This document shows, piece by piece, positions 973 to 16,972 of a stretch of DNA of 44,015 nt. Each line of letters begins with the position of its first letter. Positions within the stretch are counted from its first letter, which is position 1. The notes under the pieces were generated by a model, which saw only the letters and a program-made list of their open reading frames with translations, did not search any database and was not told the origin of the DNA. Source of the DNA: a bacterium (GTDB lineage Bacteria > Myxococcota_A > Bradymonadia > UBA7976 > UBA1532); contig JAUHXC010000011.1 in assembly GCA_030427205.1 (NCBI GenBank), forward strand, positions 1 through 44,015. The letters are read 5' to 3'. A program made the position numbers and the translations under genes.

Positions 973-2625
973 TCAGAGGTTGCGCCGCAGCACCGTCGGG
1001 CTCCAGATGTCTTTGCGGGTGGGCGTGAGCCAGGTCGCCGCGGGGAACGGTACGCCGGTGTGGTCGGCGACGTCCTTGGCGAACCTGGTGCAGTTGTACT
1101 CGAGCAGGCTGTAGTCCTTGGGGCTGCGGTACTGGTCGTAGGCGAACTTCAGGCCGGTCTTCCAGCGGTCGAAAGGCACCGGGACGCGCCGGCTGCGGGC
1201 CATGTCTTCGGTCGCGCTGTGGGTCTCGGGGTGCGAGACGCGGCCGGGCACCGCGTCGAAGGGGCTGTCTCCCGTGGCGCCGGGGTACAGGCCGAAGCTG
1301 CGCGCGTCGGCGGTCTGCCCGGTGCTCGTCTCGGTGTGGAAGCTGACCCAGGTGTGGCCCACGCCGGCCGCCATCAGCCCCGCGACGTAGTCCTCTTTGC
1401 GTTCCTTGCGGGCCCGCGGCGTATCGTCCGTGCCCGGCGGGGCCGGCTGCCAGTCCTCGGTGAACTCGTCGGCCACCTCTCGGGCCGCCTCGTCCTTGAT
1501 CTCGCCGCCCGTCTTACGGGTGAACCACTGCATCGCCTTCATGCGGGACCGCTTGATCGCGAAGGTGTCGTAGCGCTCATGCCCGGTGACGGCGTGGATG
1601 TTGAAGACATAGGTCATGTCGTCGGCGGCGTCTTCGGGCAGGGCGCGCACCGCGTCGCGCCAGGCATCGAACCGCGCGACCCGATCGGGCTTGCGCTGCA
1701 GCCGCCCGCGGTCCCAGTCGACGCTCTCGATCAGCGCGCGCGCCGCGGCGACCTTGCGCTGCTTGTCGCGGCCGCCGGCGCCCTCGTTGGCCGCAATGTA
1801 TTTGCGCGCCTGGGCCTCGATGGCGTTGTGCAGCACCTGCCGCCGGGTCGCCGCGTCGGCTGCGTCCCCGGCGATCGCGTGCCACTGTTCGACGAGGCCG
1901 AGCAGCGCTTTGTACTTGCCCCGCGACGACGGGGCGCCGCCGTAGGCCCGCATGTCGTCGACGGTGATCAGGCATTGCACCACCGGCGCGCTCGGCCGGC
2001 CCAACGTCGGCGGCCGGCCGGGCCGGCGCACCCCGGACTGCTGCACCGCGTGGGCGATCTCGTGGCGCAGCACCGCCTGCCCGCTGCGGGTCTCGACGGC
2101 GCAGCGGGCGGGGTCGAGCCAGATGGTCCGGCCGACGGTGGCCGCGGTGGCGCCGAGCCCGCGGGTGACCTCGGCGGCGCGGCGGTCGCTGTGCAGCCGG
2201 ATGCCGCTCAGGTCGACGCCGAAGCGGGGTTCGAGGCTGCGGCGCAGGTGCGCCGAGAGCGGGCGGCCACGCTCGAAGCCGCGGCGGATGGCGGCGCCGG
2301 TCTCGGCGTCGACGGGCGCGCCGCCACGGGGCCGCGGTCCGCGGGCCGGCGGCGGCGCGCGGCCGCCCGCGGGCTGAGGGCGGTCGGGCGCGGTGCGCTC
2401 GGCGGCGCGATGGGCCGCGTCTTCGAACCGATCGTCGGCCGGGCGTACGGTGAGGCCGGGGTCGGTGGCGGGGGTCGCGGCGGCCCGCATCCGCCGCAGC
2501 AGGGCGCCGACGCTGCGGTTGCCCATGCCGCGCCCGGCGTCATGCCCGGCGCCATGTTCGGCGTTGGCGCGCCGGGCGCCGGTCTCGCCCGGCCGCTTGG
2601 CGATGGCTCTGGTCGCGCGGGTCAT
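973..2625 (-). CDS. DUF4157 domain protein (zincin-like HExxH motif LRHEIAHAVQQ preceded by FGVDLSGIRLH...LGATAATVG) with a C-terminal region resembling a PPPDE/permuted-papain cysteine peptidase (H..SFG...P then YSLLEYNCTRF). No signal peptide or TM; effector or toxin-like.
   Basis: Full ORF with codon bias consistent with neighbours. DUF4157 signature block recognised (GxDLSxVRxH ... LGAxAxTxG ... HE[IL]AHVVQQ). Ordered His-before-Cys motifs at the C-terminus match the PPPDE/DeSI pattern. GGGGAG RBS 4 nt upstream of the ATG at 2625. Confidence 0.75.
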   Translation of the reverse strand: MTRATRAIAKRPGETGARRANAEHGAGHDAGRGMGNRSVGALLRRMRAAATPATDPGLTVRPADDRFEDAAHRAAERTAPDRPQPAGGRAPPPARGPRPRGGAPVDAETGAAIRRGFERGRPLSAHLRRSLEPRFGVDLSGIRLHSDRRAAEVTRGLGATAATVGRTIWLDPARCAVETRSGQAVLRHEIAHAVQQSGVRRPGRPPTLGRPSAPVVQCLITVDDMRAYGGAPSSRGKYKALLGLVEQWHAIAGDAADAATRRQVLHNAIEAQARKYIAANEGAGGRDKQRKVAAARALIESVDWDRGRLQRKPDRVARFDAWRDAVRALPEDAADDMTYVFNIHAVTGHERYDTFAIKRSRMKAMQWFTRKTGGEIKDEAAREVADEFTEDWQPAPPGTDDTPRARKERKEDYVAGLMAAGVGHTWVSFHTETSTGQTADARSFGLYPGATGDSPFDAVPGRVSHPETHSATEDMARSRRVPVPFDRWKTGLKFAYDQYRSPKDYSLLEYNCTRFAKDVADHTGVPFPAATWLTPTRKDIWSPTVLRRNL

Positions 2626-2705
2626 GGCTCTCCCCGAGGCGTCGGAACAGCGTAGACCAGCGCTACGCCGCTGAACAGGTGGCCCGCCAGGGCCGCCGGG
2701 GGCGT

Positions 2706-3980
2706 TCAGGGGGCGTCTTCGTCGTACGGCGCGGCCTCGGGCTGCGCCGGTATCGGATCGAGCGCGGGCGGGGCATCGGGGGTCGCGGGCGGGGCATCTT
2801 CGGGCGCGGTCGAGGGGTCGCCGGGCGCTGCGGGTGGCTCCGCGGGCGCCGCGGGCGGCGGTTCGGCCCGGTCGACGGCATTACGCAGCTGCTGCAGCGG
2901 GTCGACGGTGCGGGCGCGGAAGGCGGCGCGCAGCACCTCGGCGGACAAGCCGTCGGCCTGCTCGGCGTCGACGTGCGCCCCGTTGCCGGCGGCGGCGATG
3001 GCCCGATGCTGGGGGCGCACGAGGCGGTCGTGCTCGCGGGTGATGCCCCGGCGGCGGCCGTAGCCCGGCGGCGGGGTCGAGAGCATGTAGATCCGGCCGC
3101 CGGCGGCGGCGAAGCGGCGGGCGGTGTCGAGGCAGGGGCCCGCGCCGGGGTCGTCGGCGGCGGCGTCGCTGGTGGTGAGAATCAGCTTGATGGCGCCGGG
3201 TCGCCAGCGGGCCTTCTCCGCGGCGCCGAGGCCGCCGCAGAGCCACTCGGGGCGGTCGTCGTCGACGCCGGTGCTGGTGGCCTCGATGCCGGCGAGGAAG
3301 TCGGCGAGCTCGGCGGCGTCGGCGGTCAGCGGGTGCTGTTCGAGGCGCATGCCGGGGGCCTCGCGGCGGTCGCGGAAGACGATGGCGCCGACCCGGGCGG
3401 TGGGGCTGACGACGCGCAGGGTGTCGACGGTGGCCCGCAGGTTGCGCCGGGTGGCGTCGAGGCCGGCGGCCATGGACGCGGTGCCGTCGATGACGAGCAT
3501 GACGTCGACGGGGCGGGCGGTCAGCGGGTCGAGCTCGCCGAGCACGGCGCGCACGCTCTGGTCGAGTGCGGCGGCGCGTCCGCTGGCCTGCTGCGCCCGC
3601 TGCTCGCTGGTGGCCAGGGCGGCGGTGAGGGCCTCTTTGTCGGCGATGAGGCCGTCGCGCTCGGCGAGCAGGCGGTCGCGATCGGCCTGCAGGGCGGCGA
3701 GGGCCACGCTGGCTTCGCTGGCGGCGCCGCTGGCCCGGCGGGCGGCGGCCTCGGCGATCCGCTTGCGGTCGAGGGCGGCGATACGCGCCGATTCGGCTCG
3801 GGCCCGGGCCTCGGCCTCGGCCACCAGCGAGTCGCGGGCGTCGGTGAGCGAGGTGCGGATGTGCATCACCGCGACGAGGAAGAGCAGCAGCACGCAGCCG
3901 AGCGCGGTGGTCAGGATGTCGGCCAGCGAGGTGCCGAAGACCTCGGCGCCTCGGCGGCCGTCGCGGCGGCGGCGGCTCAT
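2706..3980 (-). CDS. MotB/ExbD/TolR-like single-TM protein (N-terminal Arg-rich cytoplasmic stretch, TM helix SLADILTTALGCVLLLFLV with the conserved Asp) followed by a periplasmic coiled coil, a von Willebrand factor A (vWA) domain (VMLVIDGTASM...) and a Pro/Ala-rich tail.
   Basis: The ORF track gives 2706..4670, but its first 230 aa are an Arg-rich out-of-frame read-through of the upstream gene. The true start is the ATG at 3980 (MSRRRRDG...), forming an ATGA overlap with the upstream stop at 3977-3979. The TM motif AD[IF][LM]T[TA]A resembles E. coli MotB YADFMTAMMAFF (recalled from memory) around the proton-conducting Asp32. The vWA block DGTASM plus downstream hydrophobic strands is typical. 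Confidence 0.7.
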   Translation of the reverse strand: MSRRRRDGRRGAEVFGTSLADILTTALGCVLLLFLVAVMHIRTSLTDARDSLVAEAEARARAESARIAALDRKRIAEAAARRASGAASEASVALAALQADRDRLLAERDGLIADKEALTAALATSEQRAQQASGRAAALDQSVRAVLGELDPLTARPVDVMLVIDGTASMAAGLDATRRNLRATVDTLRVVSPTARVGAIVFRDRREAPGMRLEQHPLTADAAELADFLAGIEATSTGVDDDRPEWLCGGLGAAEKARWRPGAIKLILTTSDAAADDPGAGPCLDTARRFAAAGGRIYMLSTPPPGYGRRRGITREHDRLVRPQHRAIAAAGNGAHVDAEQADGLSAEVLRAAFRARTVDPLQQLRNAVDRAEPPPAAPAEPPAAPGDPSTAPEDAPPATPDAPPALDPIPAQPEAAPYDEDAP

Positions 3981-5173
3981 CGCTCGGGCCCGAAGGGGCC
4001 GTCGTCGCTTTCGAGGTCGCCGTCGCCCATGGTGTAGGGGGTCGAGGTCTCGCCTTCGGGCAGGTCGAGCCGGGTCGAGGGGCCGACGGCGTAGCCCCGG
4101 GTCGGCTGGCGGGGGCGGGCCGGCGCGCCTTCGCGGCGCACGATGAGCGGCTGCTCGCCCTGGCGGCGCAGGGCGCCGAGCTCGTGCTGCAGCCGGGGCA
4201 GCGCGGCGCGGGTCTCGCGGGCGGCCTGCACCAGCTCGGTGACGGCGCCGTCGATGGGCGGCAGGGCTTCGAGGCGGCGGGCGACGGCGGCGAGCGCGGT
4301 GTCGATGGCCTGCATGCTGCGCTCGATGCGGGCGACGGTCTCGGCCTGGCGGTCGAGGGCGGCCTCGGCGGGGGTCTGCTGGGCGAGGCCGGCCAGGTCG
4401 AGGCGCTGCACGTAGCCGGCGCCCAGGTCGCGCTCGATGCGCTCGAGCAGGCGCTTGTCGCGGCCTTCGAGGCCCACTTCGAGCAGCTTGAGCGGCACGA
4501 CGAGCGCCAGGGCGAGCAGGGTGGTGTCGAAGGCGACCGCGAGCCCGGTCACCGCGGGGATGAGCGCGGCGAGGTCGTCGCCGACGCCGGTGATGACCCC
4601 GTCGAAGCTGGCGATGGCCCCGGCCATGCCGACGACGGTGCCCAGGAAGCCCGACAGCGGCAGCAGCCACATGGCGGCGGTGAGCGGGCGGTAGTCGTCC
4701 TCGACCCGGGCGTGGGCCCGGTCGACGGCCTGGGTGGCGGCTTCGAGCAGCTCGTCGCGGGTGGGGCGCTGGCTGCGGAAGTAGCTGAGGACGGCGTAGA
4801 GCACATCACCGGCGAGGGTGTCGCGCAGGCGGGTGAGCACCTCGAGGCGGCCGGGCAGCTCGCTGCGATCGACGGCGCCGTGCCGCAGCTCGCGGCAGGC
4901 GTCGAGGGCCCGGCGCTCGCCGGCGTGCACCACGAGGCGGCGCAGGATGTGGCCCACGCCCCAGAAGAAGAGGCCGACGGTCAGCGGCTGGCTGAAGCCG
5001 CGATCCCAAAGCAGCGTATGCAGCCGGGTCTCGGGGGCGAGCGCGTCGACGGCGAAGAAGAGCCCGGCGGTGCCGGCGACGGCGGCGAGCAGGGGGATGA
5101 AGCGGGTCCAGCCGCCGACGAGGGCGGCGGCGCCGCGGGAGGCGGTGAGTTGGCGGGGGTGGGCGATGTCCAT
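3977..5173 (-). CDS. MotA/TolQ/ExbB proton-channel family protein with 4 TM helices and a ~150-aa C-terminal cytoplasmic coiled-coil tail.
   Basis: Signature LLPLSGFLGTVVGMAGAIASF...AALIPAVTGLAVAFDTTLLALALVVPLKLL matches the MotA/ExbB TM3-TM4 channel motif. The ORF track start is 5233. The ATG at 5173 (MDIAHP) has a GGGAG RBS 6 nt upstream and is preferred. The stop overlaps the downstream start (ATGA). Confidence 0.75.
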   Translation of the reverse strand: MDIAHPRQLTASRGAAALVGGWTRFIPLLAAVAGTAGLFFAVDALAPETRLHTLLWDRGFSQPLTVGLFFWGVGHILRRLVVHAGERRALDACRELRHGAVDRSELPGRLEVLTRLRDTLAGDVLYAVLSYFRSQRPTRDELLEAATQAVDRAHARVEDDYRPLTAAMWLLPLSGFLGTVVGMAGAIASFDGVITGVGDDLAALIPAVTGLAVAFDTTLLALALVVPLKLLEVGLEGRDKRLLERIERDLGAGYVQRLDLAGLAQQTPAEAALDRQAETVARIERSMQAIDTALAAVARRLEALPPIDGAVTELVQAARETRAALPRLQHELGALRRQGEQPLIVRREGAPARPRQPTRGYAVGPSTRLDLPEGETSTPYTMGDGDLESDDGPFGPER

Positions 5174-5247
5174 GGGCGGCTCCCGCGGTGTGGGGTCGCC
5201 CATAGAATCAGCGGCGGGGGCCGATTTGTTCAACCGGCCCGCCGATT

Positions 5248-5420
5248 AGGGCTTGGAAGGAAATTACTCGGACCCGCGAGGGCGTGAGCTCGGCCCCCAG
5301 TCGCCAGCGCCCCCGCAGCCGGCGACGCAGTCGTACCAGAGGTACGGCGAGGAGTCGGCGAGGAGGCAAGCGGCGAATGGGGGTCGAGATCGCGGCCGCA
5401 GCCCGAGTAATTTGCTGACA
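5248..5420. repeat. Imperfect ~23-bp inverted repeat (gggcttgGAAGGAAATTACTCGG ... CCGAGTAATTTGCTGACaagccc; an 11-bp perfect core AAATTACTCGG/CCGAGTAATTT plus a 7-bp outer match) flanking a ~125-bp segment. The arms are locally AT-rich in a 70% GC background. An internal small hairpin CGTACCagaGGTACG is present.
   Basis: Read directly from the sequence. Lies between the stop of the giant LTD gene (5426) and the start of the motA-like gene (5173), both on the minus strand. Confidence 0.6.
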
Positions 5421-5425
5421 AGCCC

Positions 5426-8400
5426 TTACATCGGCTCGCCGCAGAACGCGCCGAACTCGTCATCGACGCAGACGAAGTCGAAGTCGGCGCAGTTGTCGGT
5501 GAAGTTGACCCGGTACTCGCAGGTGGGCTGGCCGTCGTCGCCGACGACGCACTGCCCGTCGCCGCCGTAGAAGGCGACGGTGGTGGGGTCCTGGCAGAAG
5601 GCCGGCGGCGGGTCGAAGCAGAAGACGTCGGCGCAGGGGTCGCGCACGATGTCGAGGTCGATGGCCGCCTCGGCGGAGTAGCCGTTCTCGAGCCCGTCGC
5701 TGTCGCAATAGGCCCAGGTGCGCCCGCCGTCGACGCTGAAGCGGAAGGCCATGTCGTAGGCCCCGCTCACCGGCTGGCCGGGGTCGAACGAGGCGGTGTA
5801 CTCGTCGTAGGCGGGCGTGCCGCGGTCGTCGCCGTTGTAGCCGGGGGTGTCGATGGCCGGGGTCCAGCTCCAGTCGAGGTTGCCGGCGGGGTCCGATCCG
5901 CGCGGCCCGTAGCCGCCCTCGGCGACGAGCAGGCCGTCGAGGTCGACGAGCGGGGAGCGGTCGGTGATGCCGGCCTCGAAGACCAGGCCGGTGACTTCGA
6001 GCGGCGGGTTGAAGCCGCCGGCCTGCCACTCGGTGGGCACGACGGGGAAGTTGAAGCGGCAGTCGTCGACGGTGACGTCGACCTCGGGGCACTGCGGGTT
6101 GGGCAGGCCGGGGGTGCCGAGGTGGTCGAGCGCGGCGTCGCCGCCGGGGTCGGCGAAGTAGACCACCTCGCCGAGGCACCAGTTGATGCCCTCGTCGTTG
6201 GCGTCGAAGTCGTAGGCGTCGGGGTCGAGGCTGATCGAGGCCGCCGAGGCGTCGGGGAAGGTGAAGCCGTCGTCGTAGCCGAAGGTGTCGACGAGCGCCG
6301 CGCCGCAGTACAGGTTGAGCCGGCCGGCGGCGTTGGGCAGGGCGAAGTCGAAGGTCTGCGCGACCTGCAGCCCGCCGTTGACTTCGGGGTCGGCGGAGCG
6401 GGCGAGCAGCGCGACGCCGCCGGCGGCGAGGTTGATCGTCAGCCGGGTCGAGGCGCCGCCTTCGAGGCCCATGGTGCAGCCGTCGAGCACGAGGTCGCGG
6501 TCGGTGGTATTGGTCAGCTCGATCCACTCGGCCTGGTTCTCGGCGAGCACGCCCTGGGGGTCGTAGAGCATCTCGCTGAAGACCACGTCGCCCTCGCCGG
6601 CGATGGCGTCGGGCGATACGCAGCGCCCCGCGGCGCAGGCCTGTCCGATCGCGCCGCAGTCGACGAGGTCGAAGTCGTAATCACAGGTCGCGGCGTCGTC
6701 GACGATGTTGCACGTGCCGAGCGCGTGGTAGGCGGCGACGGTGGTGGCGTCGAGGCACTCGTCTTCGGGCACGTCGACGCACGGGTTGGGGTCGCAGGCC
6801 CCGAGGTTGTCGCCGCACGAGGGGTTGGGCTGCCCGGGGGTGCCGAAGTGCGGCGGGTCGCCGTCGAAGTAGGCCCCGGTGGCGTTGCACCACGCCTCGC
6901 CGAGGTCGTTGAGCTCGGCGTCGACGAAGTCGGGGTCGAGCTGGTAGGCCACCGCGGGGATGTTGCCCGGGAAGCCGGCGAGCGCGTAGTCGACCGCGTC
7001 GATGGTGGTCTGCCCGCAGCGCAGCTCGACGATGTCGCCGCCGTTGTTGAGGCTGAAGTTGAAGATGCCGTCGGGCGCGATGCCGCCGTTGGCCGCCGGG
7101 TTGAGCGAGCGGGCGAAGAGCAGGATCGCGTCGGCGGGCACGAGCAGGTCGCCCACCGCGAGCCCGTTGGCGCGGTCGCGCACCTCGCACCCGGCGAGGT
7201 CGAGCAGCTCGCCGCTGACGTTGATCAGCTCGAACCACTCGCCGGCCTGCTCGTCGATCTCACCTTCGGTATTGCGCTGGATCTCGTTGACGACGATGTC
7301 GCCCGGCTCGGGGGCCCGGGCGCCGGCGGCGTCGCAGAGGCCGTCGACGCAGCCGGCGGCCCCGCAGTCTTCGCGGATCTCTTCGGGCGGGATGCACACC
7401 GGCTCGCCGTCGACCGCTTCGCACGCGGTGACCCCGTAGCTGACGGCGACGTCGCCCTCGCAGAAGGCGGCGGGCGCGTCGGCGCAGGGGTTGGGGTCGC
7501 AGGGGTCGCCCGCCGGGCACTCGCGGTTGGGCAGCCGCGGGGTGCCGAGGTGCTCGGGGTCGAAGATGTAGGGGTCTTCGGCGAGGCACCAGTTGCGGCC
7601 GAGGTCGTTCTGCTGGGCGTCGAGCCGGTTGCTCGAGAGGTTGATCGAGGCCGCCCGCGCGTCGGGGAAGGCGCCGCCGTCGTCGTAGTTGACGGTGTCG
7701 ATCAGCGCGCCGTCGCAGCGCAGGTTGACCTCGTCGCCGCCGTTGGTCAGCGAGAAGTCGAAGGTGCCGTCGACCTCTTGCAGGCCGCCGTTGAGGATCG
7801 GGTCGTCGACCCGGGCGAAGAGCGCGTAGCCCCGCGCGGCGATCTCGACGCCGGCGATGGGGGTGCCGCTCGCCGAGTCGGCGATCTCGCAGCCGTCGAG
7901 GCTGAGCGGGGTGTCGGTGGTGTTGTACAGCTCGATCCACTCGGCGAAGTTCTCGTCGAGCCCGTTGTGCGGGTCGTAGAGGATCTCGCTGACGATGACC
8001 TCGCCCGGCGCGGGGAGCCGCGCCCCGCCGCAGGCGCCGTTGACGCACTGCGCGTCGACGCAGTCTTCGCGCTGCTCGGGGTAGTCGCAGGTGGCGAGGC
8101 CGATGGCGTCGACGCCGCAGACGCCCACGTCGGGGTAGGTCACGGCGGTGTTGCCGTCGCAGACGCTGACCGGCGGGTTCACGCAGGGGTTGGGCGCGCA
8201 GGGGTTGGCCGGCGGGTCGACCACCAGCCGCCCGGCGTCTTCGACCCGGTAGCCGTCCGACGAGCCGGCGTCGCCGCTGTCGCAGACCTGCCAGGTGCGG
8301 CCGCCGTCGACGCTGAAGCGGAAGGCGAGGTCGTACTCGCCGGGGATCGGCATGACCACGTCGGCGCGGTACTCGTCGTTATTGGGCTCGCCGAGCCCGC

Positions 8401-11400
8401 CGGCGCCGTCGTAGTCGGCGTTGGGGAAGCCGGGGGTCCAGACCCACTCGGGGTTGTCCATGGGCAGCGAGCCGTCGGGGCCGTAGCCCACCGCGGCCAG
8501 GATGAGCCCGGTGCCGTCGTTGAGCGGGCTGAGGTCGGTGATGCCCTCTTCGTAGATCCGGCCGTAGACGATCTGCACGGTCTCGAACTCGGCCTGCAGC
8601 TCGCTGGGGAACTGCAGCCGGCAGAAGTCGACCTCGCTGTCGCACGGCGGGTTGGGCGCGCCGGGCGAGCCCCACTGCGCCGGGTCGACCGAGTAGCGGG
8701 TGCGCGAGGGGCACCAGCTGGCCGGGTCGTCGTTGAGCGCGGGGTCGACGGCGCCGTCGCGCAGCTGGATCGAGAACCCGCGCACCGGCGGGAAGCCGCC
8801 GCGCTCGTCGTAGGTCACCGTGTCGACGATGATGCCGCCGCACGAGACGGTGAGGCTGTCGTCGGTATTGTTGAGGCCGAAGTCGAAGACGCCGCGCACG
8901 TTCTCCAGGCCGCCGTTGACCGCCGGGTCGGCGCTGCGGGCGAAGACGGCGTACTCGCCGACCTCGATCTCGACGTCGTCGGCCGGGCTCTCGTTGTTGG
9001 CGTCGGCGAAGACGCAGGTGCGCATCGACAGCGGCGCGTCGCTGGCGTTGTACAGCTCGAAGTACTCGGCGGTGTTGTCTTCGAGGCCGTCGTGCGGGTC
9101 GTAGAGGATCTCGGTGATGACCAGATCGCCGGGCAGCGGGTCGCGCACCTCGCCGCGCACGCAGGCCCCGTCGGCGCAGCCGAGCGGGCAGGCCGTGATC
9201 TCTTCGGCGTACTCGCAGACCGGCAGCCCGCCTTCGTCGGCGCAGGCGCCGACGGCGGCGTAGGCCACCTCGGTGTCGGCGTCGCGGCACTCGGACGGCG
9301 GCGGCTCGTCGCACGGGTTGGGCAGGCAGGGGTCGGCCGGGTCGCCGACGACGACGTGGCCGGCGTCGGCGGGCTGGTAGCCGTTGATCGAGCCCGGCTC
9401 GCGGTCGCAGAAGGCGTAGCTGCGGCCGTCGTCGGCGCTGAAGCGCCAGGCGACGTCGTAGCGGCCGGGCGGCAGGTCGGCGAGGGTCGCGCGGTAGGTG
9501 TCGGCGTTGGCGGCGTCGTTCTCCGGGTCGCCCTGGCCGACCATCCAGACCCAGGTGCGGTCCTGGGTGGGGTCGCTGCCCGCCGGGCCGTAGCCCACGC
9601 CGCCGCGCAGCCGCACGTCGGCGTCGACGCCGCGGCTGCGGTCGGTGATGCCGGCGGCGACGAGCAGCGCGGTGCTCTCGACGTCTTCGCCGAGCGCGAC
9701 GTTGGCCTCGTCGGGGCTGAGCAGGGTGCAGATCGTCAGCGTGGGGCAGCTCGGGTTGGGCCCGCCGGGCGTGCCGTGGTGGTCGCCGCCGGGCGCGTCG
9801 AAGTAGACCGGCAGGGTGCGGCACCAGTTGGCGCCGATGTCGTTGGTGAACGCGCCGGTCTGGTCGGGGTCGAGGGAGACGCTGTAGGCGGTCGCCGCGG
9901 GGAAGTTGCCGCCGACGTCGTAGGCCACCGCGTCGATCTCGACGCCATCGCAGGTCAGCGCGATGCGGTCGCCCTCGTTGCCCAGGCCGAAGTCGAAGGT
10001 GCCCTGGGCCTGCAGCCCGCCGTTGGCCGCCGGGTCGCCGTTGCGGGCGAGCAGCACGTAGCCGCCGGGCGCGACGTTGATCGCGCCGAGGGCCGAGGTA
10101 TTGCCGGCGTCGTCGCCGATGGTGCACCCGTCGAGGCCCACCTCGCGGTCGCTGGCGTTGTACAGCTCGATCCACTCGCCGTCGGCGTCGGCGAGGTCGC
10201 CGGTGGCGTCGTAGAGGAACTCGGTGATCACCGCCTCGCCCACCGCGGGCGGCGCGGCGGGCACGAAGCACTCGCCGTCGATGCAGCGGGCGCCGGGCGG
10301 GCATTCGAGCCGGTCTTCGGGCCAATTGCACTGCGCCTGACCGTCGACCGCCTCGCAGACGCCGGGGTCGCGGGGGCTGATGATGGTGACGCCGTCGTCG
10401 GCGCAGCGCGGCGCGGGCGGCGGCGGGCAGACGAAGCCGTCGCACAGGTCGCCGCCGACGGGGATGGCCTCGAGCTGGCCGGCGTTGCGCGGCTGGTAGC
10501 CGTCCTCCGATCCGGCGCCGAGGTCGCAGTAGGTCCAGGTCTCGCCGCGGTCGAGGCTGACCCGCCACGCGTAGTCGTAATCACCCGGCGCGGGCACGGT
10601 CAGCTCGGCGACGTACTCGTCGTTGTCGGGCTCGCCGCGGGCGGCGCCGTCCCACTCGGGGTTGCCGGCGCCGGCGACCCACTGCCAGTCGGCGTTGCCC
10701 GCCGGGTCGGAGCCGTCGGGGCCATGGCCCGCCTCGGCGATCAGCCCGGGGATGAAGTCGACCTCGGGCGTGTCATCGGTCCAGGTGGCTTCGTAGAGCA
10801 CGCCGAAGACCTCGAAGGTGGTGCCTTCTTCGGCGCGCACCGCCTCGGGGAACTGCAGCCGGCAGTAGTCGATGCTCGGCGGCGGGCAGGCGGGGTTGGC
10901 CGCGCCGGGCGTGCCGCGGTGGGCGCCGGCTTCGCCCGGCTCGCCGAAGTAGACGTCGCCGTCGGCGGCCGGGCACCAGCCGGGCCCGTCGTCGTTGGCG
11001 CCGGCGTCGCGCACCGACGGGTCGAGGCTCAGCGAGGCGCCCGAGACCGGCACGAAGCCGTTCTGGGTGTAGTCGACCTCGTCGACGTCGAGGCCGTTGC
11101 AGCGGATGCCGAACAGGTCGCCGTCGTTGCCGAGGCGGAATTCGAAGGTGGCGGCGACGTCGACGCCGCCGTTGACCTCGCGGTCGGCGCTGTGGCCGAG
11201 CACGATGCGCCCGCCGGCGGGGATGAGCCCGCCCGCGAGCACCTCGACGTTGCCGTCGTCGTAGACCTCGCAGCCGCCCAGATAGCGCGGGCCGTCGGCG
11301 AGGTTGAGCAGCTCGACCCACTCGGCGTCGCCGTCGGAGAGCGGGTCGACGGCGTCGTAGAGGATCTCGGTGATGATCACTTCGCCTTCGCCCGGGTTGG

Positions 11401-12559
11401 GGGCGAGGTCGACGCAGGCGCCCTGCTCGCAGCGGCCGCCGGCGGCGGCGCAGTCCTGGCGGCTCTCTTCGTCGTGGGTGCACTGCGCTTCGCCGTCGAC
11501 GGCTTCGCAGGCGCCGGCGGGGGCGTAGGTCACCGCGTCGTCGCCCTCACAGGCGGCCGGCGGCGCCTCGGCGCAGGGGTCGTCGTCGCAGGCGCCGGCC
11601 AGCGCGGTCAGGGTGCCGGTCTGCTCGTCCTGGAAGCCGTTCTCCGAGCCGTCGAGGTCGCAGCGCAGCCAGCTCGCCCCGCCGTCGAGGCTGAAGCGGT
11701 AGCTCAGCGCGTAGACCCCGGGGGCCGGCGCGTCGACGGTGGCGAGGTACTGGTCGAAGCCGGGGGCGCCGGCCTCTTCGGCGCTCCAGGCGGGGTCGGC
11801 CTCGGCGCGGGCCCACATGGGGGCGTCGGCGCCTTCGGCCATCCAGCCGGCTTCGGCGACGAGGTCGAGGTCGGCGTCGACGCCGTCGGTCAGGTCGGTC
11901 AGGCCGGCCTCGAAGACGCGGCCGGCGAGGGTCACCGGGCTGCCGGCGAAGACCTCGATCTCCGCCGGGCCGGCGAAGATGCAGGCGTCGGCGACGACGT
12001 CGGCCACGCAGCCGCCATCCTGGCAGGTCTGGCGGGCCGGGCAGGCCTGCGCGCTGCCCTCGTAGCGGCACTCGGCGCTGCCGTCGACCACCTCGCAGGT
12101 GCCGTCGTCGCCGAATGTGACCACCTCGCCGTTCTCATTGCACGCGGGGCCCGGCGGGCTGTCGCAGACCACGTCGGCGCAGAGGTCGACGTCGGCGACA
12201 CAGGTATTGTTGTCGAGGTCGCAGGTCTCGCCGTCGTCGCACTCGGCGTCGTCGGTGCAGCAGCCTTCGATCGGCTCGACGACGCACTCGCCCTCGACGC
12301 AGCGGCCCTCGCCGCAGACGGCGTCGACGGCGCATTGCACGTCTTCGGTGCAGGGCGGCGGCCCGACGTCGGGTTCGGGGCCGGGGTCCATGTCCGGCTC
12401 GGGTCCGGGGGTGACGTCGGGCTCGGGCTCCGGCGTACCGTCGGTCTCCATGTCGACGACCGGGCCGGTATCGGCCGCGGTCCCATCGCCGTCGTCGCAG
12501 CCGGCGGCGACCATCATCAATCCGATGGTCGCCAGGGCCACCCACGCTCTGCGCTGCAT
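5426..12559 (-). CDS. Giant (2377 aa) surface lipoprotein with ~6 tandem modules. Each module is a Cys-rich segment (CxxNPC...C...C), a lamin-tail domain (LTD; ITEILYDP.G.D..EWIELYN) and a conserved ~120-aa beta-rich domain (AGYGPDGSDP...DEY.A.L..P.PG.YD.AFRFS.DGG.TW..CD).
   Basis: Lipoprotein signal MQRRAWVALATIGLMMVAAGC (lipobox) starts at the ATG at 12559, with an AGGGGG RBS 5 nt upstream. The ORF track's upstream extension to 12646 is less likely. The LTD motif repeats about 6 times. The long plus-strand ORF 6122..12628 is an antisense artefact. Confidence 0.85.
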   Translation of the reverse strand: MQRRAWVALATIGLMMVAAGCDDGDGTAADTGPVVDMETDGTPEPEPDVTPGPEPDMDPGPEPDVGPPPCTEDVQCAVDAVCGEGRCVEGECVVEPIEGCCTDDAECDDGETCDLDNNTCVADVDLCADVVCDSPPGPACNENGEVVTFGDDGTCEVVDGSAECRYEGSAQACPARQTCQDGGCVADVVADACIFAGPAEIEVFAGSPVTLAGRVFEAGLTDLTDGVDADLDLVAEAGWMAEGADAPMWARAEADPAWSAEEAGAPGFDQYLATVDAPAPGVYALSYRFSLDGGASWLRCDLDGSENGFQDEQTGTLTALAGACDDDPCAEAPPAACEGDDAVTYAPAGACEAVDGEAQCTHDEESRQDCAAAGGRCEQGACVDLAPNPGEGEVIITEILYDAVDPLSDGDAEWVELLNLADGPRYLGGCEVYDDGNVEVLAGGLIPAGGRIVLGHSADREVNGGVDVAATFEFRLGNDGDLFGIRCNGLDVDEVDYTQNGFVPVSGASLSLDPSVRDAGANDDGPGWCPAADGDVYFGEPGEAGAHRGTPGAANPACPPPSIDYCRLQFPEAVRAEEGTTFEVFGVLYEATWTDDTPEVDFIPGLIAEAGHGPDGSDPAGNADWQWVAGAGNPEWDGAARGEPDNDEYVAELTVPAPGDYDYAWRVSLDRGETWTYCDLGAGSEDGYQPRNAGQLEAIPVGGDLCDGFVCPPPPAPRCADDGVTIISPRDPGVCEAVDGQAQCNWPEDRLECPPGARCIDGECFVPAAPPAVGEAVITEFLYDATGDLADADGEWIELYNASDREVGLDGCTIGDDAGNTSALGAINVAPGGYVLLARNGDPAANGGLQAQGTFDFGLGNEGDRIALTCDGVEIDAVAYDVGGNFPAATAYSVSLDPDQTGAFTNDIGANWCRTLPVYFDAPGGDHHGTPGGPNPSCPTLTICTLLSPDEANVALGEDVESTALLVAAGITDRSRGVDADVRLRGGVGYGPAGSDPTQDRTWVWMVGQGDPENDAANADTYRATLADLPPGRYDVAWRFSADDGRSYAFCDREPGSINGYQPADAGHVVVGDPADPCLPNPCDEPPPSECRDADTEVAYAAVGACADEGGLPVCEYAEEITACPLGCADGACVRGEVRDPLPGDLVITEILYDPHDGLEDNTAEYFELYNASDAPLSMRTCVFADANNESPADDVEIEVGEYAVFARSADPAVNGGLENVRGVFDFGLNNTDDSLTVSCGGIIVDTVTYDERGGFPPVRGFSIQLRDGAVDPALNDDPASWCPSRTRYSVDPAQWGSPGAPNPPCDSEVDFCRLQFPSELQAEFETVQIVYGRIYEEGITDLSPLNDGTGLILAAVGYGPDGSLPMDNPEWVWTPGFPNADYDGAGGLGEPNNDEYRADVVMPIPGEYDLAFRFSVDGGRTWQVCDSGDAGSSDGYRVEDAGRLVVDPPANPCAPNPCVNPPVSVCDGNTAVTYPDVGVCGVDAIGLATCDYPEQREDCVDAQCVNGACGGARLPAPGEVIVSEILYDPHNGLDENFAEWIELYNTTDTPLSLDGCEIADSASGTPIAGVEIAARGYALFARVDDPILNGGLQEVDGTFDFSLTNGGDEVNLRCDGALIDTVNYDDGGAFPDARAASINLSSNRLDAQQNDLGRNWCLAEDPYIFDPEHLGTPRLPNRECPAGDPCDPNPCADAPAAFCEGDVAVSYGVTACEAVDGEPVCIPPEEIREDCGAAGCVDGLCDAAGARAPEPGDIVVNEIQRNTEGEIDEQAGEWFELINVSGELLDLAGCEVRDRANGLAVGDLLVPADAILLFARSLNPAANGGIAPDGIFNFSLNNGGDIVELRCGQTTIDAVDYALAGFPGNIPAVAYQLDPDFVDAELNDLGEAWCNATGAYFDGDPPHFGTPGQPNPSCGDNLGACDPNPCVDVPEDECLDATTVAAYHALGTCNIVDDAATCDYDFDLVDCGAIGQACAAGRCVSPDAIAGEGDVVFSEMLYDPQGVLAENQAEWIELTNTTDRDLVLDGCTMGLEGGASTRLTINLAAGGVALLARSADPEVNGGLQVAQTFDFALPNAAGRLNLYCGAALVDTFGYDDGFTFPDASAASISLDPDAYDFDANDEGINWCLGEVVYFADPGGDAALDHLGTPGLPNPQCPEVDVTVDDCRFNFPVVPTEWQAGGFNPPLEVTGLVFEAGITDRSPLVDLDGLLVAEGGYGPRGSDPAGNLDWSWTPAIDTPGYNGDDRGTPAYDEYTASFDPGQPVSGAYDMAFRFSVDGGRTWAYCDSDGLENGYSAEAAIDLDIVRDPCADVFCFDPPPAFCQDPTTVAFYGGDGQCVVGDDGQPTCEYRVNFTDNCADFDFVCVDDEFGAFCGEPM

Positions 12560-12697
12560 CCGTCCCCCTCGTTCGCGTCTCGGTGGTTCGCGTCGTATTG
12601 GTCGATTCACGCGCGGATGATGTGGTGACGGCGCGATGCGAGTCAAACGACGGGTCGGTGACGGACGCGAGGGCGCGCGGCGCCGCGCCGAACGGGG

Positions 12698-13999
12698 TCA
12701 GAGCTTCTCGTAGTCGGCCGGCTCGTCGGCCGGCGCCGGGCGCTCGACGGGGCGCGCGTCCCGGGGTCTTACCGGGCGCCTCGGGCGGGGTCGCACCGGG
12801 CGCTCGGCGGGCGGGCGGGCAGCGGGCGTCGTCGTCTTGCGCGGGCGCAGGGGGCGGGCGGCGTCGGGCTTCGCATCGGGCGCCGCTGCGTCGACGGGCG
12901 CGGGCGCCGCGTCGGGCGCGGCGGCGTCGGGTACGGCCGCGTCGGGCGCGGCGGCGGCGGGCTGGGCGGCGGGCTGCACCGCGGCGGTCAACGGGTCCGC
13001 GGGCGGCGGCGCGGTCGTCGCCGGCGCGCCGTCGCGCAGCAGCAGGAAGACGACGACGATCGCCAACGCCGCCACCGCGGCGATCCAGGGCCACGGCGTC
13101 GGGCGGGCGGGCGGCGGCTCGAGCGGCGCGTCGATCGCCGGCCGCGCGCTGGGCGGCGGCGGGCCGTCCATGCGCGGCAGCGGGCCGGTGCTGACCATGG
13201 TGTCCGACATCGGCCGCCCGCTGGGGGTGAGCCCGATCGAGACCGCGCGCTCGATCGGACCGAGCACCGCGACCGCCGAGGGCGGGCGCTGGCCGGGCGA
13301 GCGACGGCAGAGCCCGTCGAGCACCTCGAGCAGCGGCAGCGGCACGCCGGGCAGGGGCCGATGGGCGGCCTCGGTGGGCGACAGGCCGCCGAGCAGCGCC
13401 CGGCCGATCACGCCCAGCGCGTACAGATCGGTGCGCGCCTCGACCGGCGCGGCGTCACGCTGCTCGGGCGCGGCCCAGGGGCTCGTGCCGTAGGCGAAGG
13501 GGGTCTCGGCCAGCCCGACGCCCGCGAGCCGCACGTAGTCGGCGCGGCCGGTCGTCTGCTGCAGCAGGATGCATTCGGGTCGCAGGCCGCCGTGAAAGAG
13601 GCCGCGTCCGTGGGCTTCGGCGAGCACCCGCGTGAGCTGGCGCAGGATGTCGGCGACCCGGTCGGGCGGCTGGGCCTGGCCCATCAGCGCGCTGAGCGGC
13701 TCGCCTTCGACGCGGCTCTCGACGAGATAGAGCCCCGTCTCGCCCGCGCCGGCGTCGAGCACCGGCACCACCGCGGGGTGGTCGAAGCCGACGACCCGCT
13801 GCAGGGTGCGCTTGAGGCGCATGGCCTCGGCGGTGCCGCCCGGCGCCTGATGCACGATCACCCGGCGCCCGGTGGGCAGATACACCGCCTCGTGCGATCC
13901 ATCGGCCCTGCGGTCGCCGAGTCGATAGCGACCGTCGAGCGTCACCCCGCCGAAGTCGGCGGTCTCGCGTCCTCTGTCCACGGGGGCAGCACACCGCAA
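12698..13999 (-). CDS. Membrane-anchored pseudokinase. It has a Ser/Thr protein-kinase-like fold with degenerate catalytic motifs (VIVHQ instead of VAIK; HGGLRPECILL instead of HRDLKPENIL; LAGVGLAE instead of DFG; APE and D.YALG retained). A TM helix (WPWIAAVAALAIVVVFLLL) and a Pro/Ala/Arg-rich tail follow.
   Basis: Kinase subdomain order recognisable, but the catalytic Asp, the DFG Asp and the VAIK Lys are all substituted. Confidence 0.65.
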   Translation of the reverse strand: MRCAAPVDRGRETADFGGVTLDGRYRLGDRRADGSHEAVYLPTGRRVIVHQAPGGTAEAMRLKRTLQRVVGFDHPAVVPVLDAGAGETGLYLVESRVEGEPLSALMGQAQPPDRVADILRQLTRVLAEAHGRGLFHGGLRPECILLQQTTGRADYVRLAGVGLAETPFAYGTSPWAAPEQRDAAPVEARTDLYALGVIGRALLGGLSPTEAAHRPLPGVPLPLLEVLDGLCRRSPGQRPPSAVAVLGPIERAVSIGLTPSGRPMSDTMVSTGPLPRMDGPPPPSARPAIDAPLEPPPARPTPWPWIAAVAALAIVVVFLLLRDGAPATTAPPPADPLTAAVQPAAQPAAAAPDAAVPDAAAPDAAPAPVDAAAPDAKPDAARPLRPRKTTTPAARPPAERPVRPRPRRPVRPRDARPVERPAPADEPADYEKL

Positions 14000-14059
14000 T
14001 TCGGGTGCCGGTGCAAGAAAGTCGAACGCCGCGCGGGGCGCCGTCGATCGGCGCGGTCG

Positions 14060-15322
14060 TCAGTCGCGGGGCGTGATGCGCAGCACCTGATGGTTCCAGG
14101 CGTCGGCGATCCACAGGTTGCCCTCGGGGCCGACCTCGATGCCCATCAGCGCGCCCTCTTCGAGGCCGGTGTCGAGGTAGTCGAGGACCTCGCCGGTGCT
14201 GATGGAGATGCCCCAGATGCGGCCGGTGGCGTTGTCGCCGACGAAGAGCACGTCGCCGTCTTGCGCCAGGCCGCTGGGCGCGAGCAGCTCGGGGTGTTCG
14301 AAGAGGGTCATCATCGGCGCGTGGTCGGTGACGAGGTTGAGCACGGTGCCCGGCTCGATGGAGGGCAGCCGCCGCTCTTCGGAGCCGAGGGTGGTGTCGA
14401 AGATCGCGACCCGGGCGTTGCCGGTGTCGGCGATGTAGAGCATCTTCTCGTCGTGGTCGAAGACCATGTGCGAGGGCACGTCGGGGGTGCGCTGCACCTC
14501 GCCGACGGCGTAGCGGGTGATGATGCCGTCGGAGTGGTCGTCGAAGCCGGGCCCGTGGTCGATGCGGAAGTCGTTGCGGGCGATGGAGCCGGTCAGCCCC
14601 TCGAAGACCCAGTAGATGTTGTCCCGCTCCCAGGCGATGCCCATGCACAGCGGCGACTCGTGCAGCATGTCGAGGTGCGAGCCGAGGTCGTCGCCAACGA
14701 ACGCCACCGCGTCGGGGTTGGTGCGGGCGTAGACGTCGAGGTCCGAGGGCCACAGCGACGGGCCCATGAAGTCGTTGGGCTCACCCTGGCCGTTGTAGGT
14801 GTTGCGCGACTCCTGGCAGGTGCCGAACGTGCCCGGCGCGCCGAAGTCGATCGACGAGACCTCCTCCATGAAGTGCAGCGCGAAGGGGTCGATGAGGTGC
14901 ACCGAGTCCTGCTCGGGCGTGCCCGGATCCCAGACGATGGTCGTCGAGTCGTCGAAGCGGTTGACGATCCACAGCTCGGGGGTCTCGCTGTGCGGGTTGA
15001 ACGCCAGGTCGCGGGGCACGGCGAGGCCGTCGGGGCGCCGCTGGACCATCGTGCGCATGCGCACGTTCGAGACGCTGTGGCCGCCGTTGCCGAGGATCGC
15101 CAGCCCGGCGGGCTCGGGCTCGGGCTCCGGTTCGGGATCGGCCTCCGGCTCGGGCATCGCCTCCGGCTCGGGCATCGCCTCCGGTTCGGGCATCGCCTCG
15201 GGCTCCTGGTCGCCGGGCGTGATGACGATCGGATCGTCGTCGCCGCCGCCGTCATCGGCGGGCGCGCAGCCCCATGCGGCCAGCGCCGCGAGCGTCAATC
15301 CCCAGAGCGCAGTTCGCTTCAT
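14060..15322 (-). CDS. Secreted beta-propeller (NHL-repeat-like) lipoprotein with an N-terminal acidic Pro-Glu linker (EPEAMPEPEAMPEPEAMPEPEADPEPEPEPEP).
   Basis: Lipoprotein signal MKRTALWGLTLAALAAWGC from the ATG at 15322 (AGAGGA RBS). The ORF track's long upstream extension to 17161 overlaps the opposite-strand peptidase gene and is rejected. NHL-type motif NLWIADAWNHQVLRI near the C-terminus. Confidence 0.65.
   Translation of the reverse strand: MKRTALWGLTLAALAAWGCAPADDGGGDDDPIVITPGDQEPEAMPEPEAMPEPEAMPEPEADPEPEPEPEPAGLAILGNGGHSVSNVRMRTMVQRRPDGLAVPRDLAFNPHSETPELWIVNRFDDSTTIVWDPGTPEQDSVHLIDPFALHFMEEVSSIDFGAPGTFGTCQESRNTYNGQGEPNDFMGPSLWPSDLDVYARTNPDAVAFVGDDLGSHLDMLHESPLCMGIAWERDNIYWVFEGLTGSIARNDFRIDHGPGFDDHSDGIITRYAVGEVQRTPDVPSHMVFDHDEKMLYIADTGNARVAIFDTTLGSEERRLPSIEPGTVLNLVTDHAPMMTLFEHPELLAPSGLAQDGDVLFVGDNATGRIWGISISTGEVLDYLDTGLEEGALMGIEVGPEGNLWIADAWNHQVLRITPRD
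15105..15215. repeat. Short 18-bp tandem DNA repeat (cggctcgggcatcgcctc, about 4 copies) encoding the EPEAMP linker inside the lipoprotein CDS; a potential length-variable tract.
   Basis: Direct repetition visible at 15120-15200. Confidence 0.6.
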
Positions 15323-15523
15323 CGTGTCCTCTTCGATTGTCTGCCGGACGACCGGCCGAGGCCGGACCGTTTGGATAGCGATCACCCGCAGACGGTTGCA
15401 AGGATCAATCCGATCGTCCGCTGACGGCGCGCTGCCGCCCGGCCGCGCGCCGCGATTGGCCCCGCCTCGGACGGTGTGCGATGCTGCGCCGCCCATGCCC
15501 CCTGCCCCCCGCGGAGCCAGCCG

Positions 15524-16972
15524 ATGAGCGATTCGCCGACGATGCCCGAGCCCGAGCCGGCCGCCACCACCCGCCACCGTACGACCATCGGCGGTCGCAC
15601 GATCGCCTACACTGCCACCGCCGGCACCGTGCGCCTGAGCCGAAAGGACGGTACGCCGCGGGCCGATATGTTCTACGTGGCCTTCACCGCCGACGGGGTC
15701 GACGACCTCAGCGAGCGGCCGATCACCTTCGCCTTCAACGGCGGCCCCGGATCGTCGTCGGTGTGGCTGCAGCTCGGCGCCCTCGGCCCGCGGCGGGTCG
15801 ACCTGCCCGATACCGTGGCTCCGCCGCCGCCGCCCTATCGGCTGGTGGACAACGCCTTCGGGGTGCTCGACAAGACCGATCTGGTGTTCATCGACCCGGT
15901 GGCGACGGGCTTCAGCCGGGCGGCCGAGGGGCGGGAGCAGGACTTCTTCAACATCGAGGGCGACGTCGACGCGGTGGTCGAGTTCGTCTGGCGCTACATC
16001 ACGCAGAATCAGCGCTGGAACAGCCCGCGGTTCCTGGCGGGCGAGAGCTATGGCACGACCCGCGCGGCGGGCCTCGCCCGGCGCCTGCAGGAGCGGGGCA
16101 TCGTGCTCAACGGGCTGGTGCTGTTGAGCCTGGCCCTCGACTTCCAGACGTTCCTCTTCGAGGCGGGCAACGAGCTGCCCTACGTGCTGTATCTGCCGAG
16201 CTACGCCGCGGTCGCCGCCTATCACGGGCAGCTCGCCGAGCAGCCGGCCGATCTGACGGCGTTCCTCGACGAGGTGCGAGCCTTCGCCTACGACGAGTAC
16301 GCCCCCGCGCTGATGCACGGCGCCCGGCTCGACCCCGAGCGGCGCGCGGCGGTCGTCGACAAGCTCGCCCGCTATACCGGCCTCGACGCCGAGACCGTCG
16401 ATCGGCTCGATCTGCGGGTGGACTATCTGCGCTTCGCCAAGGGGCTGCTCGACCGGGTGGGGCATACGGTGGGCCGGCTCGACGCGCGTTATACGGGGCC
16501 CGACCTCGACCCGCACCACCCGCAGCTGCAGCGCGACCCGAGCTACGACGCGCCGCTGGGGGCCTACACCGCGCTGATCAACGACTATCTGCGGCGGGTG
16601 CTGCGCTACGAGGCCCCCGAGGCGGGCTATACGGTGCTGTCGATGGAGGTCAACCGGGCGTGGAGCTGGGCCGAGAAGAGCCGCATGGGGCACCCGAGCC
16701 TGGCCGACGATCTGCGGCGCACGCTGGTGGCCAACCCGCACCTCAAGGTGATCATCCTCAACGGGCTGTATGACCTGGCGACGCCGTTCTTCGCCGCGGA
16801 GTACACCGTCGATCACCTGCGGCTCGAGCCCGAGCAGCGGGCGAACATCGAGCTGGCCTACTACGAGGCGGGGCACATGATGTACTTCCACCCGCCCTCG
16901 CTGAAGCAGATGCGGGCCGATCTGGCCCGCTTCTACGACACCGCGGCGCCGCCGGCCGCGCAGAAGGGCTGA
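15524..16972 (+). CDS. Serine carboxypeptidase, peptidase family S10 (motifs FNGGPGSSS and GESYG).
   Basis: ATG at 15524 (MSDSPTM) with GGAG 8 nt upstream. The active-site Ser motif GESYG and the oxyanion-region NGGPGSSS are classical S10 features. Confidence 0.8.
   Translation: MSDSPTMPEPEPAATTRHRTTIGGRTIAYTATAGTVRLSRKDGTPRADMFYVAFTADGVDDLSERPITFAFNGGPGSSSVWLQLGALGPRRVDLPDTVAPPPPPYRLVDNAFGVLDKTDLVFIDPVATGFSRAAEGREQDFFNIEGDVDAVVEFVWRYITQNQRWNSPRFLAGESYGTTRAAGLARRLQERGIVLNGLVLLSLALDFQTFLFEAGNELPYVLYLPSYAAVAAYHGQLAEQPADLTAFLDEVRAFAYDEYAPALMHGARLDPERRAAVVDKLARYTGLDAETVDRLDLRVDYLRFAKGLLDRVGHTVGRLDARYTGPDLDPHHPQLQRDPSYDAPLGAYTALINDYLRRVLRYEAPEAGYTVLSMEVNRAWSWAEKSRMGHPSLADDLRRTLVANPHLKVIILNGLYDLATPFFAAEYTVDHLRLEPEQRANIELAYYEAGHMMYFHPPSLKQMRADLARFYDTAAPPAAQKG

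Follow-up and report, generated by a model that had tools for sequence, protein, structure and literature searches.

Contig JAUHXC010000011.1 (assembly GCA_030427205.1), from a bacterium of the Myxococcota (GTDB lineage Myxococcota_A; Bradymonadia; UBA7976; UBA1532), was analysed from position 1 to position 44,015, and this whole stretch of 44,015 nucleotides is referred to here as the window. Six consecutive genes, G1 to G6, occupy positions 973–15322 on its minus strand. Since the window has a G+C content of ~73%, raw lists of open reading frames (ORFs) were crowded with spurious frames, and the genes were modelled from GC3 frame plots (G+C content at third codon positions) together with inspection of start codons and ribosome-binding sites. 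Here, we report that G4 and G5, which are predicted to encode a channel subunit of the TolQ/ExbB/MotA type and a membrane-anchored partner with a domain of the von Willebrand factor A (vWA) type, are the only two of the six that are linked without exception. The block consists of this phylum-wide pair, a subclade pair (G2–G3) upstream of it and two local neighbours, G1 and G6. We consider it very probable that the core pair is a proton-driven trans-envelope vWA motor.

In the order of transcription, the run begins with G1 (14060–15322, minus strand; 420 amino acids), an NHL-repeat beta-propeller lipoprotein with the lipobox LAAWGC and an acidic (M)PEPEA linker. It is followed by G2 (12698–13999, minus strand; 433 amino acids), a membrane-anchored pseudokinase, and by G3 (5426–12559, minus strand; 2377 amino acids), a giant acidic LTD lipoprotein with the lipobox VAAGC. 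G4 (3977–5173, minus strand; 398 amino acids, with an alternative start at 5203) is the TolQ/ExbB/MotA-like channel subunit, G5 (2706–3980, minus strand; 424 amino acids) is the vWA protein and the candidate 'B' subunit of the motor, and G6 (973–2625, minus strand; 550 amino acids) is a DUF4157/eCIS_core protein. The run had been singled out in an earlier sequence-only reading of the window as six consecutive minus-strand genes, and the ends given there coincide exactly with the stop of G6 and the start of G1; each of its domain calls was confirmed by Pfam for G1–G6. No other same-strand run in the window is as long, and the other modelled genes, at 15476–27742 and 37957–41764, mostly switch strands. 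From G1 to G6, the intergenic gaps are 60, 138, ~252, −4 and 80 nt; the negative value is an overlap of the G5 start codon with the G4 stop codon as ATGA. Thus, the description of the gaps as short in that reading holds only in part. Promoter and terminator scans and intergenic folding found no strong intrinsic terminators inside the block. A weak terminator-like hairpin lies between G1 and G2 (14042–14025), upstream of G3 there is a weak promoter-like site (12646–12617) and a stable hairpin is located 3' of the G5 stop. The counts of promoters and terminators were close to shuffle expectation, and the z-scores of intergenic folding ranged from −1.5 to +0.6.

The channel subunit and its vWA partner

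G4 matches the Pfam family MotA_ExbB (PF01618) with 32.4 bits against a gathering cut-off of 22.9, and the domain is present in all G4 homologues. Four predicted membrane helices are followed by a cytoplasmic C-terminal tail that forms a helical hairpin (residues 268–340), and a P-x4-R motif is conserved after the last membrane helix. The membrane core has a fold like that of solved TolQ, ExbB or MotA. In the family alignment the motifs GFLGTVVGM and AFDTTLLALALVVPLK are invariant; threonines T179 (in GFLGTVVGM) and T217/T218 (in AFDTTLL), located in the last two transmembrane helices, are invariant in 24 aligned sequences. From the similarity of the motifs we take these residues to be the counterparts of TolQ T145 and T178. 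Both TolQ and ExbB score better against G4 than ZorA does, and a search of the PDB sequences with the G4-family profile matched only designed coiled coils, by way of the G4 tail. On sequence grounds, G4 is assigned to the TolQ/ExbB/MotA channel family.

The N-terminus of G5 is Arg-rich and leads into a transmembrane helix with an invariant Asp21 (SLADILTTALGC). The segment that follows the Arg-rich stretch, FGTSLADILTTALGCVLLLF, is invariant and resembles the Asp-bearing helices of MotB, TolR and ExbD; within this helix the motif SLADILTTALGCVLLLFLV is similar to that around Asp32 of MotB. According to the positive-inside rule, the vWA head is predicted to be periplasmic. In the AlphaFold2 model an unbroken helix (residues 20–150) precedes an alpha/beta domain (residues 158–372), and a Pro-rich tail ends the protein. 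About 110 residues of this modelled helix lie beyond the membrane and would span ~16 nm if extended. A Foldseek search with the alpha/beta domain retrieved the vWA domains of SpaC, BatB, CMG2/TEM8 and integrin beta (E 1e-8), and the Pfam VWA model, below its cut-off in G5 itself, is above cut-off in G5 homologues. Residues D21, D165-x-T167-x-S169, T237 and D272 are invariant in 23 G5 homologues, leaving the metal ion-dependent adhesion site (MIDAS) intact. An OmpA-type peptidoglycan-binding domain is absent from G5, in which Pfam shows VWA only and the fold is that of a vWA domain. Furthermore, no gene of the TolR, ExbD or MotB type was found beside G4–G5 in the window or in those relatives' loci for which genes were called.

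Conservation in related and distant loci

Related loci were gathered in two ways, by exact look-ups of G4 and G5 homologues and by a pattern scan over one genome per species, and all six window proteins were compared with every collected locus using tblastn. Every synteny sample was anchored on G4 or G5, giving a total of ~25 related Myxococcota loci; the nearest relatives are metagenome-assembled genomes (MAGs) labelled Myxococcales, Myxococcota or Nannocystaceae. A G5 homologue lies directly downstream of G4 in every sampled Myxococcota locus, at G4 identities of 34–81%. The −4 overlap recurs in most of the complete loci, and G4 is followed by one vWA gene only, both in the window and in all relatives. 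When the neighbouring ORFs of 21 loci were compared all against all, no further partner of G4–G5 was shared beyond subclades, which is a lower bound as the GC3 filter lost some true genes.

The upstream genes are conserved less widely. Four lineages, each with a G4 identity of ≥69%, have G3 directly upstream of G4 (the window and the loci L001, L090 and L095), and G2 lies upstream of G3 in three of these four, namely the window, L095 and probably L090. In L001 (G4 identity 81%) the order is a GST gene, G3, G4, G5 and a gene for a MauG-type peroxidase. In L095 (70%) a gene encoding 116 amino acids is followed by a G2 ortholog (59% identical), G3, G4, G5 and genes on the opposite strand. The L090 contig (69%) holds only the C-terminal half of a G2-like gene, then G3, G4 and the start of G5; the fragment shares with G2 the juxtamembrane sequence MSDT(M/I)(V/I)STGPLP, the transmembrane helix and a C-terminal YEKL. 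G2 and G3 are both missing from L087 (77%), L094 (70%) and L092 (60%). A metagenome scan anchored on G2, made for the linkage of G1 to G2 and of G2 to G3, returned three distant kinases only.

The vWA protein has relatives well outside this group. A profile search with the G5 family against 1.84 billion representatives returned ~16 close ones and, below these, many distant matches. The distant full-length relatives have 320–370 amino acids and the same Asp helix, coiled coil and vWA domain, and one of them is labelled Alphaproteobacteria. A profile–profile alignment of G5 with the distant family using hhalign gave a probability of 99.9% and an E value of 1e-35 over 334 columns, and the Asp of the transmembrane helix is invariant in the distant homologues too (alignment A5). 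A 3.7-Mb contig (L099:83-11095) carries, in this order, genes for kinase-Sel1, MotA_ExbB, FHA, PP2C, FHA/YscD, transmembrane-helix vWA, kinase-WD40 and SIR2_2 proteins. In an alphaproteobacterial MAG (L100), genes for a kinase-FGE-sulfatase protein, an FHA-like protein and a MotA_ExbB protein lie on one strand and the vWA gene is divergent. Kinase genes are also found within a few kb of the pair in the Myxococcota loci L003/L007, L010 and L013. A full-text search of the literature gave no description of a cluster of MotA, vWA and kinase/FHA/PP2C genes. With G2 kept in L095 and kinase-fold genes in the distant L099 and L100, a recurrent link between the motor and kinase-fold proteins is plausible, although not established.

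These comparisons bear on a simpler explanation, namely that only G4 and G5 are functionally linked and that G1, G2, G3 and G6 are ordinary neighbours whose co-orientation reflects recent shared ancestry. No neighbour is conserved outside the subclade with a G4 identity of ≥69%, L087 and L094 have neither G3 nor G2 despite their G4 identities of 77% and 70%, and the gaps of 138 and ~252 nt leave room for separate promoters, with the weak site at 12646–12617 as an instance. Against this, L095 retains the order G2-G3-G4-G5 at 50–70% protein identity while the flanking genes differ on both sides, L001 retains G3-G4-G5 with both flanks different, and, in unrelated lineages, distant homologues of the pair have kinase, FHA and PP2C genes beside them. 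On balance we regard this explanation as rather unlikely. Should the accessory links turn out to be due to shared ancestry only, the locus would still be a clean Myxococcota example of the motor class.

A separate MotA-like family (loci L020–L086, for example L020:7023-9173), with 23–36% identity to G4, came up in the genome scan, in which 80 of at least 563 matches were retained; its hosts are Planctomycetota, Verrucomicrobiota, Cyanobacteria and Calditrichota. The downstream partners in these loci have 150–330 amino acids, a transmembrane motif SLFPFLSILAC (mostly without an Asp), a coiled coil and no Pfam domain. Considered as possible MotB/OmpA-type partners, they were rejected as kin of G5, being a distinct family, and no conclusion about G5 was drawn from them.

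Probable subclade partners and local neighbours

In G3, six LTD domains (Pfam LTD, six stretches, E 6e-68) are interleaved with Cys-rich modules and domains of an Asp-box-like type. Its 2377 amino acids include 109 Cys, 18.6% Asp+Glu and not a single Lys, whereas the Lys content of the other proteins of the window is 0.3–3.3%. The orthologs are 68% (L001) and ~50% (L090 and L095) identical to G3. Those at L001:2788-9930 and L090:919-8202 have 0 and 2 Lys, respectively, and likewise 109 Cys, and in both, as in G3, the lipobox Cys is followed by Asp-Asp. Lysine avoidance is thus conserved in this giant envelope protein. Two further proteins encoded in the window are unrelated to G3: a second giant protein of 2240 amino acids with a TPR-rich C-terminal half (28282–35004) and a protein of 387 amino acids with 10% Cys and DUF7107/EB modules (37957–39120).

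G2 (Pfam Pkinase, E 1e-9) comprises a degenerate Hanks kinase domain, one transmembrane helix and an Ala/Pro-rich tail ending in DYEKL. Its catalytic motifs were aligned with the canonical kinase of the same window as a reference. They read VIVHQ, with His in place of the VAIK Lys, HGGLRPEC, with HGG in place of HRD, and GVG in place of DFG. As G2 has lost the catalytic Lys and the Asp of both HRD and DFG, it is a pseudokinase. The L095 ortholog (59% identity) shows the same catalytic losses.

The outer genes of the run behave differently. G1 (Pfam NHL, E 3e-10) has no homologue in any related locus according to tblastn, and in L095 only 116 amino acids are encoded by the gene that lies upstream of the G2 ortholog; G1 is a local neighbour outside the conserved cluster. 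G6 carries the Pfam domain eCIS_core, formerly DUF4157, at residues 122–198 (E 9e-22), with the HExxH motif present as HEIAH, and a search of 5.8 billion proteins yielded just two relatives. None of the other loci carries G6, which is missing downstream of G5 in L001, L087, L092 and L095. In the C-terminal part of G6 (residues ~420–520) two motifs stand out, VGHTWVSFHT with a His and EYNCTRFAKD with a Cys, which P0138, the sole full-length relative, retains as well. The Cys motif weakly matches the catalytic Cys region of Peptidase_C97/PPPDE (E 0.074), and the PDB sequences gave no match to G6. From these motifs the C-terminus is possibly a papain-like cysteine peptidase effector domain. The toxins with DUF4157 that are associated with extracellular contractile injection systems (eCIS) have an N-terminal DUF4157 domain and a variable C-terminal domain (Nat Commun 2021, PMC8213781). 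G6 resembles them in having an N-terminal DUF4157 domain with HExxH and a different C-terminal domain; unlike in those systems, no sheath, tube, baseplate or spike domains are present among the 16 window genes scanned. In L094, an 861-amino-acid protein with DUF4157, Zeta_toxin and ADP-ribosyltransferase (ART) domains is encoded 103 nt 3' of the G5 ortholog (L094:11370-13955), and its alignment with G6 is confined to the DUF4157 domain. This suggests a variable slot for DUF4157 effectors that adjoins the motor pair in L094 and in the window. We regard G6 as a local addition to the block and as a candidate effector of the polymorphic kind.

The G6 stop is directly followed, at 24–899, by a tandem array of an 85-nt unit in 10.3 copies with 91% matches and no indels, which perhaps continues beyond the left end of the window. 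Its period is not divisible by 3 and GC3 periodicity is lacking; on the minus strand, each unit nevertheless encodes a plausible motif of ~28 amino acids (GTALARIAADGTIERTHFMANAVDGTPVWD) that is broken by a 1-nt frame slip per unit. Compared with shuffled sequences, folding is far better on the plus strand (z −4.9) but not on the minus strand (z −1.1), and the array has no match in Rfam. A 2.3-kb Logan contig with the same G6 breaks where the array starts. It may represent a repeat pseudogene that was frameshifted and amplified, a non-coding array with structure or an artefact of assembly.

Composition provides no sign of acquisition. The six genes have GC3 values of 0.93–0.97 and codon distances of 0.05–0.13, within the range of the flanks (0.89–0.97 and 0.04–0.17), and the window has neither tRNA genes nor Rfam matches. 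Among the six genes, PADLOC matched only G2, with generic kinase models, and left G1, G3, G4, G5 and G6 unmatched. In NCBIfam nothing was above threshold for G3–G6, G1 and G3 had sub-threshold matches only and G2 again matched generic kinase models. As the synteny is graded, G1 and G6 are unconserved, and GC3 and codon usage are like those of the flanks, the block is considered neither an acquired island nor a six-gene unit.

A conflict or defence island has been considered in which a Zorya-like motor, G4–G5, senses envelope perturbation, with G6 as the effector and the pseudokinase as the regulator. It draws on the DUF4157 toxin-type gene that follows G5 both in the window and in L094, on the IS110 transposase and AAA_15/AAA_21 ATPase genes upstream in L094, and on the SIR2_2 gene adjoining the L099 cluster. 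However, the DUF4157 gene occurs in two of the ~25 loci, ZorC-, ZorD- and ZorE-like genes are absent, and PADLOC has no match for any of the genes apart from G2. Moreover, TolQ and ExbB fit G4 better than ZorA, the G4 tail (~70–100 residues) is far below that of ZorA in length, and the head of G5 is a vWA domain rather than the peptidoglycan-binding domain of ZorB. There is also no compositional island signal, and the pair is a stable chromosomal feature across the phylum. We judge a defence island to be highly improbable.

The sequence-only reading had proposed that all six genes form one operon for a single surface-sensing machine. Six co-oriented genes, among them two lipoproteins, a pseudokinase and a motor, with no strong internal terminators found, are in keeping with that proposal, but in no relative are G1 and G6 conserved together with the other genes, G1 is followed by a terminator-like hairpin and the G5 stop by a stable one, and G6 belongs to a fast-evolving, toxin-associated family. 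A single six-gene machine is therefore very unlikely. Otherwise the interpretation in that reading is supported in part. The naming of G2 as a pseudokinase is borne out by its VAIK Lys, HRD and DFG positions, which are all degenerate. The comparison of synteny that it called for found G4–G5 linked everywhere and G2 and G3 with them in a subclade, leaving G1 and G6 outside, so that its trio of MotA-like, MotB-vWA and DUF4157 genes reduces to the pair G4–G5 followed by a variable toxin-like gene. Its combination of an energy-transducing module with a giant surface protein and a pseudokinase exists in one subclade only and not in the rest of the family. In place of a six-gene surface-sensing or defence island, the synteny favours a smaller functional cluster; defence models matched nothing beyond the generic kinase similarity of G2, and the check on G+C content and codon usage against the flanks gave no island signature.

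Proposed mechanism and comparison with known systems

A class of proteins with features like those of G4–G5 has been described in 'Origin and Evolution of Bacterial Periplasmic Force Transducers' (Mol Biol Evol 2025, PMC12204202, section 8), in which TolQ-like genes co-occur tightly with genes for transmembrane-anchored vWA proteins, without TolR. The 'transpore helix' of these vWA proteins holds a conserved Asp, predicted to lie within a Thr ring, and the authors propose that the vWA proteins rotate inside the pentamer and thereby transduce force; the class was described from genomes and AlphaFold 3 models only, and its function is stated there to be unknown. According to that paper, the vWA genes mostly come in heterologous pairs, and their hosts are mainly Proteobacteria and Verrucomicrobia. 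G4–G5 resembles the class in its tight linkage, in the absence of a TolR, ExbD or MotB gene, in the Asp of the G5 transmembrane helix and in the channel Thr residues. We file the pair as a variant of this class by its described features, because every feature tested is present except the heterologous vWA pairing. Two further differences are distinguishable. The first is the ~110-residue helix between membrane and vWA domain in G5, unlike the main text of that paper, in which the word 'coiled' is absent. The second is the association with a giant LTD lipoprotein and a pseudokinase, neither of which is reported there.

The explanation that we favour, and consider reasonably probable, is a layered one, with G4–G5 as the core, G2–G3 as an accessory of the subclade and G1 and G6 as unrelated neighbours. 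Five G4 subunits would enclose two G5 helices in a 5:2 complex, in which G5 would take the role of TolR, ExbD or MotB by placing its N-terminal helix, with a proton-binding Asp, inside the G4 pentamer. Proton flow through G4:G5 may then turn or pull the helical shaft of G5, presumably a coiled coil. The MIDAS-bearing vWA head would replace a peptidoglycan-binding domain, and the two heads, ~16 nm from the inner membrane and close to the outer membrane, may grip an acidic residue of a ligand via a metal ion and transmit force to it. As a Lys-free lipoprotein that has 109 Cys and 18.6% Asp+Glu, G3 is the obvious candidate ligand in the subclade bearing it and may be the envelope partner or the cargo of the heads. 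G2 may serve the motor on the cytoplasmic side, as its scaffold or its regulator, possibly at the tail of G4. G6 would be a polymorphic DUF4157 effector that landed in a slot where one other lineage has a different DUF4157 toxin. A bolder version, which we hold to be quite unlikely, is that G2–G5 form an undescribed trans-envelope mechanotransduction machine in which the proton-driven TolQ-like motor turns the ~16-nm shaft, the integrin-like vWA heads at its tip grip G3, and the load of the motor is read or set in the cytoplasm by kinase-fold proteins, namely the pseudokinase in the window and sets of active kinase, FHA and PP2C proteins in distant relatives; if true, such a machine would be the bacterial counterpart of outside-in and inside-out signalling by integrins.

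Several points weigh against the layered explanation. The G3–G4 gap of ~252 nt in the window compares with 70–77 nt in the relatives, so that co-transcription of G3 and G4 in the window is uncertain. G3 is absent from L087 and L094, despite G4 identities of 77% and 70%, and from all loci with a G4 identity of ≤60%; thus, the motor does not need G3. The linkage of G2 and G3 to the motor comes from sampling that was anchored on G4 or G5. Ser/Thr kinases are very common in Myxococcota, and the 44-kb window itself has two kinase-fold genes, G2 and a canonical kinase-SBP_bac_5 gene at 23056–25707, so that proximity of kinases is weak evidence in this phylum; the kinase/FHA/PP2C context comes from two distant loci. 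As for the core, the single vWA gene and the Myxococcota host set G4–G5 apart from the class described in 2025, and for that whole class the stoichiometry, the rotation and the ligand are inferred.

To our knowledge, ion-driven 5:2 motors (Mot, Tol, Ton, Gld/Por, Agl and Zor) are the only means by which energy is delivered to the diderm outer envelope, and we are aware of no new motor output module that has not revealed a new cellular process. The present locus provides the TolQ-like/vWA class with testable candidates, the giant LTD lipoprotein as a ligand or cargo and the pseudokinase as a cytoplasmic partner, and the distant kinase/FHA/PP2C contexts point to a link between the motor and Ser/Thr phospho-signalling. 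A comparable association is known from the DRA0331–0334 operon of Deinococcus, which combines genes for vWA, kinase, FHA and PP2C phosphatase proteins (bioRxiv 10.64898/2026.01.23.701218). In L099 and L100 a vWA gene is similarly linked to genes for kinase-fold, FHA and PP2C proteins, and here to a pseudokinase. Going by its abstract, the Deinococcus operon differs in that no MotA/TolQ-like subunit is listed there; in the window, the linked kinase is catalytically dead and the FHA and PP2C genes are absent.

Among the better-known motors, Zorya was rejected as an identity for G4–G5, with no PADLOC match and no ZorC, ZorD or ZorE partner genes in the window; the tail of ZorA is far longer than that of G4 (~70–100 residues), and ZorB has a peptidoglycan-binding domain where G5 has a vWA domain. 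The MotAB/PomAB stators are similar to G4–G5 in the translational coupling of their A and B genes. Nevertheless, a flagellar stator was likewise rejected, as G5 has no peptidoglycan-binding domain. Compared with TolQR and ExbBD, G4 adds an N-terminal helix pair and a C-terminal helical tail. Finally, TolQR–TolA and ExbBD–TonB employ a separate transducer, TolA or TonB, whereas here G5 itself carries both the long shaft and the binding head.

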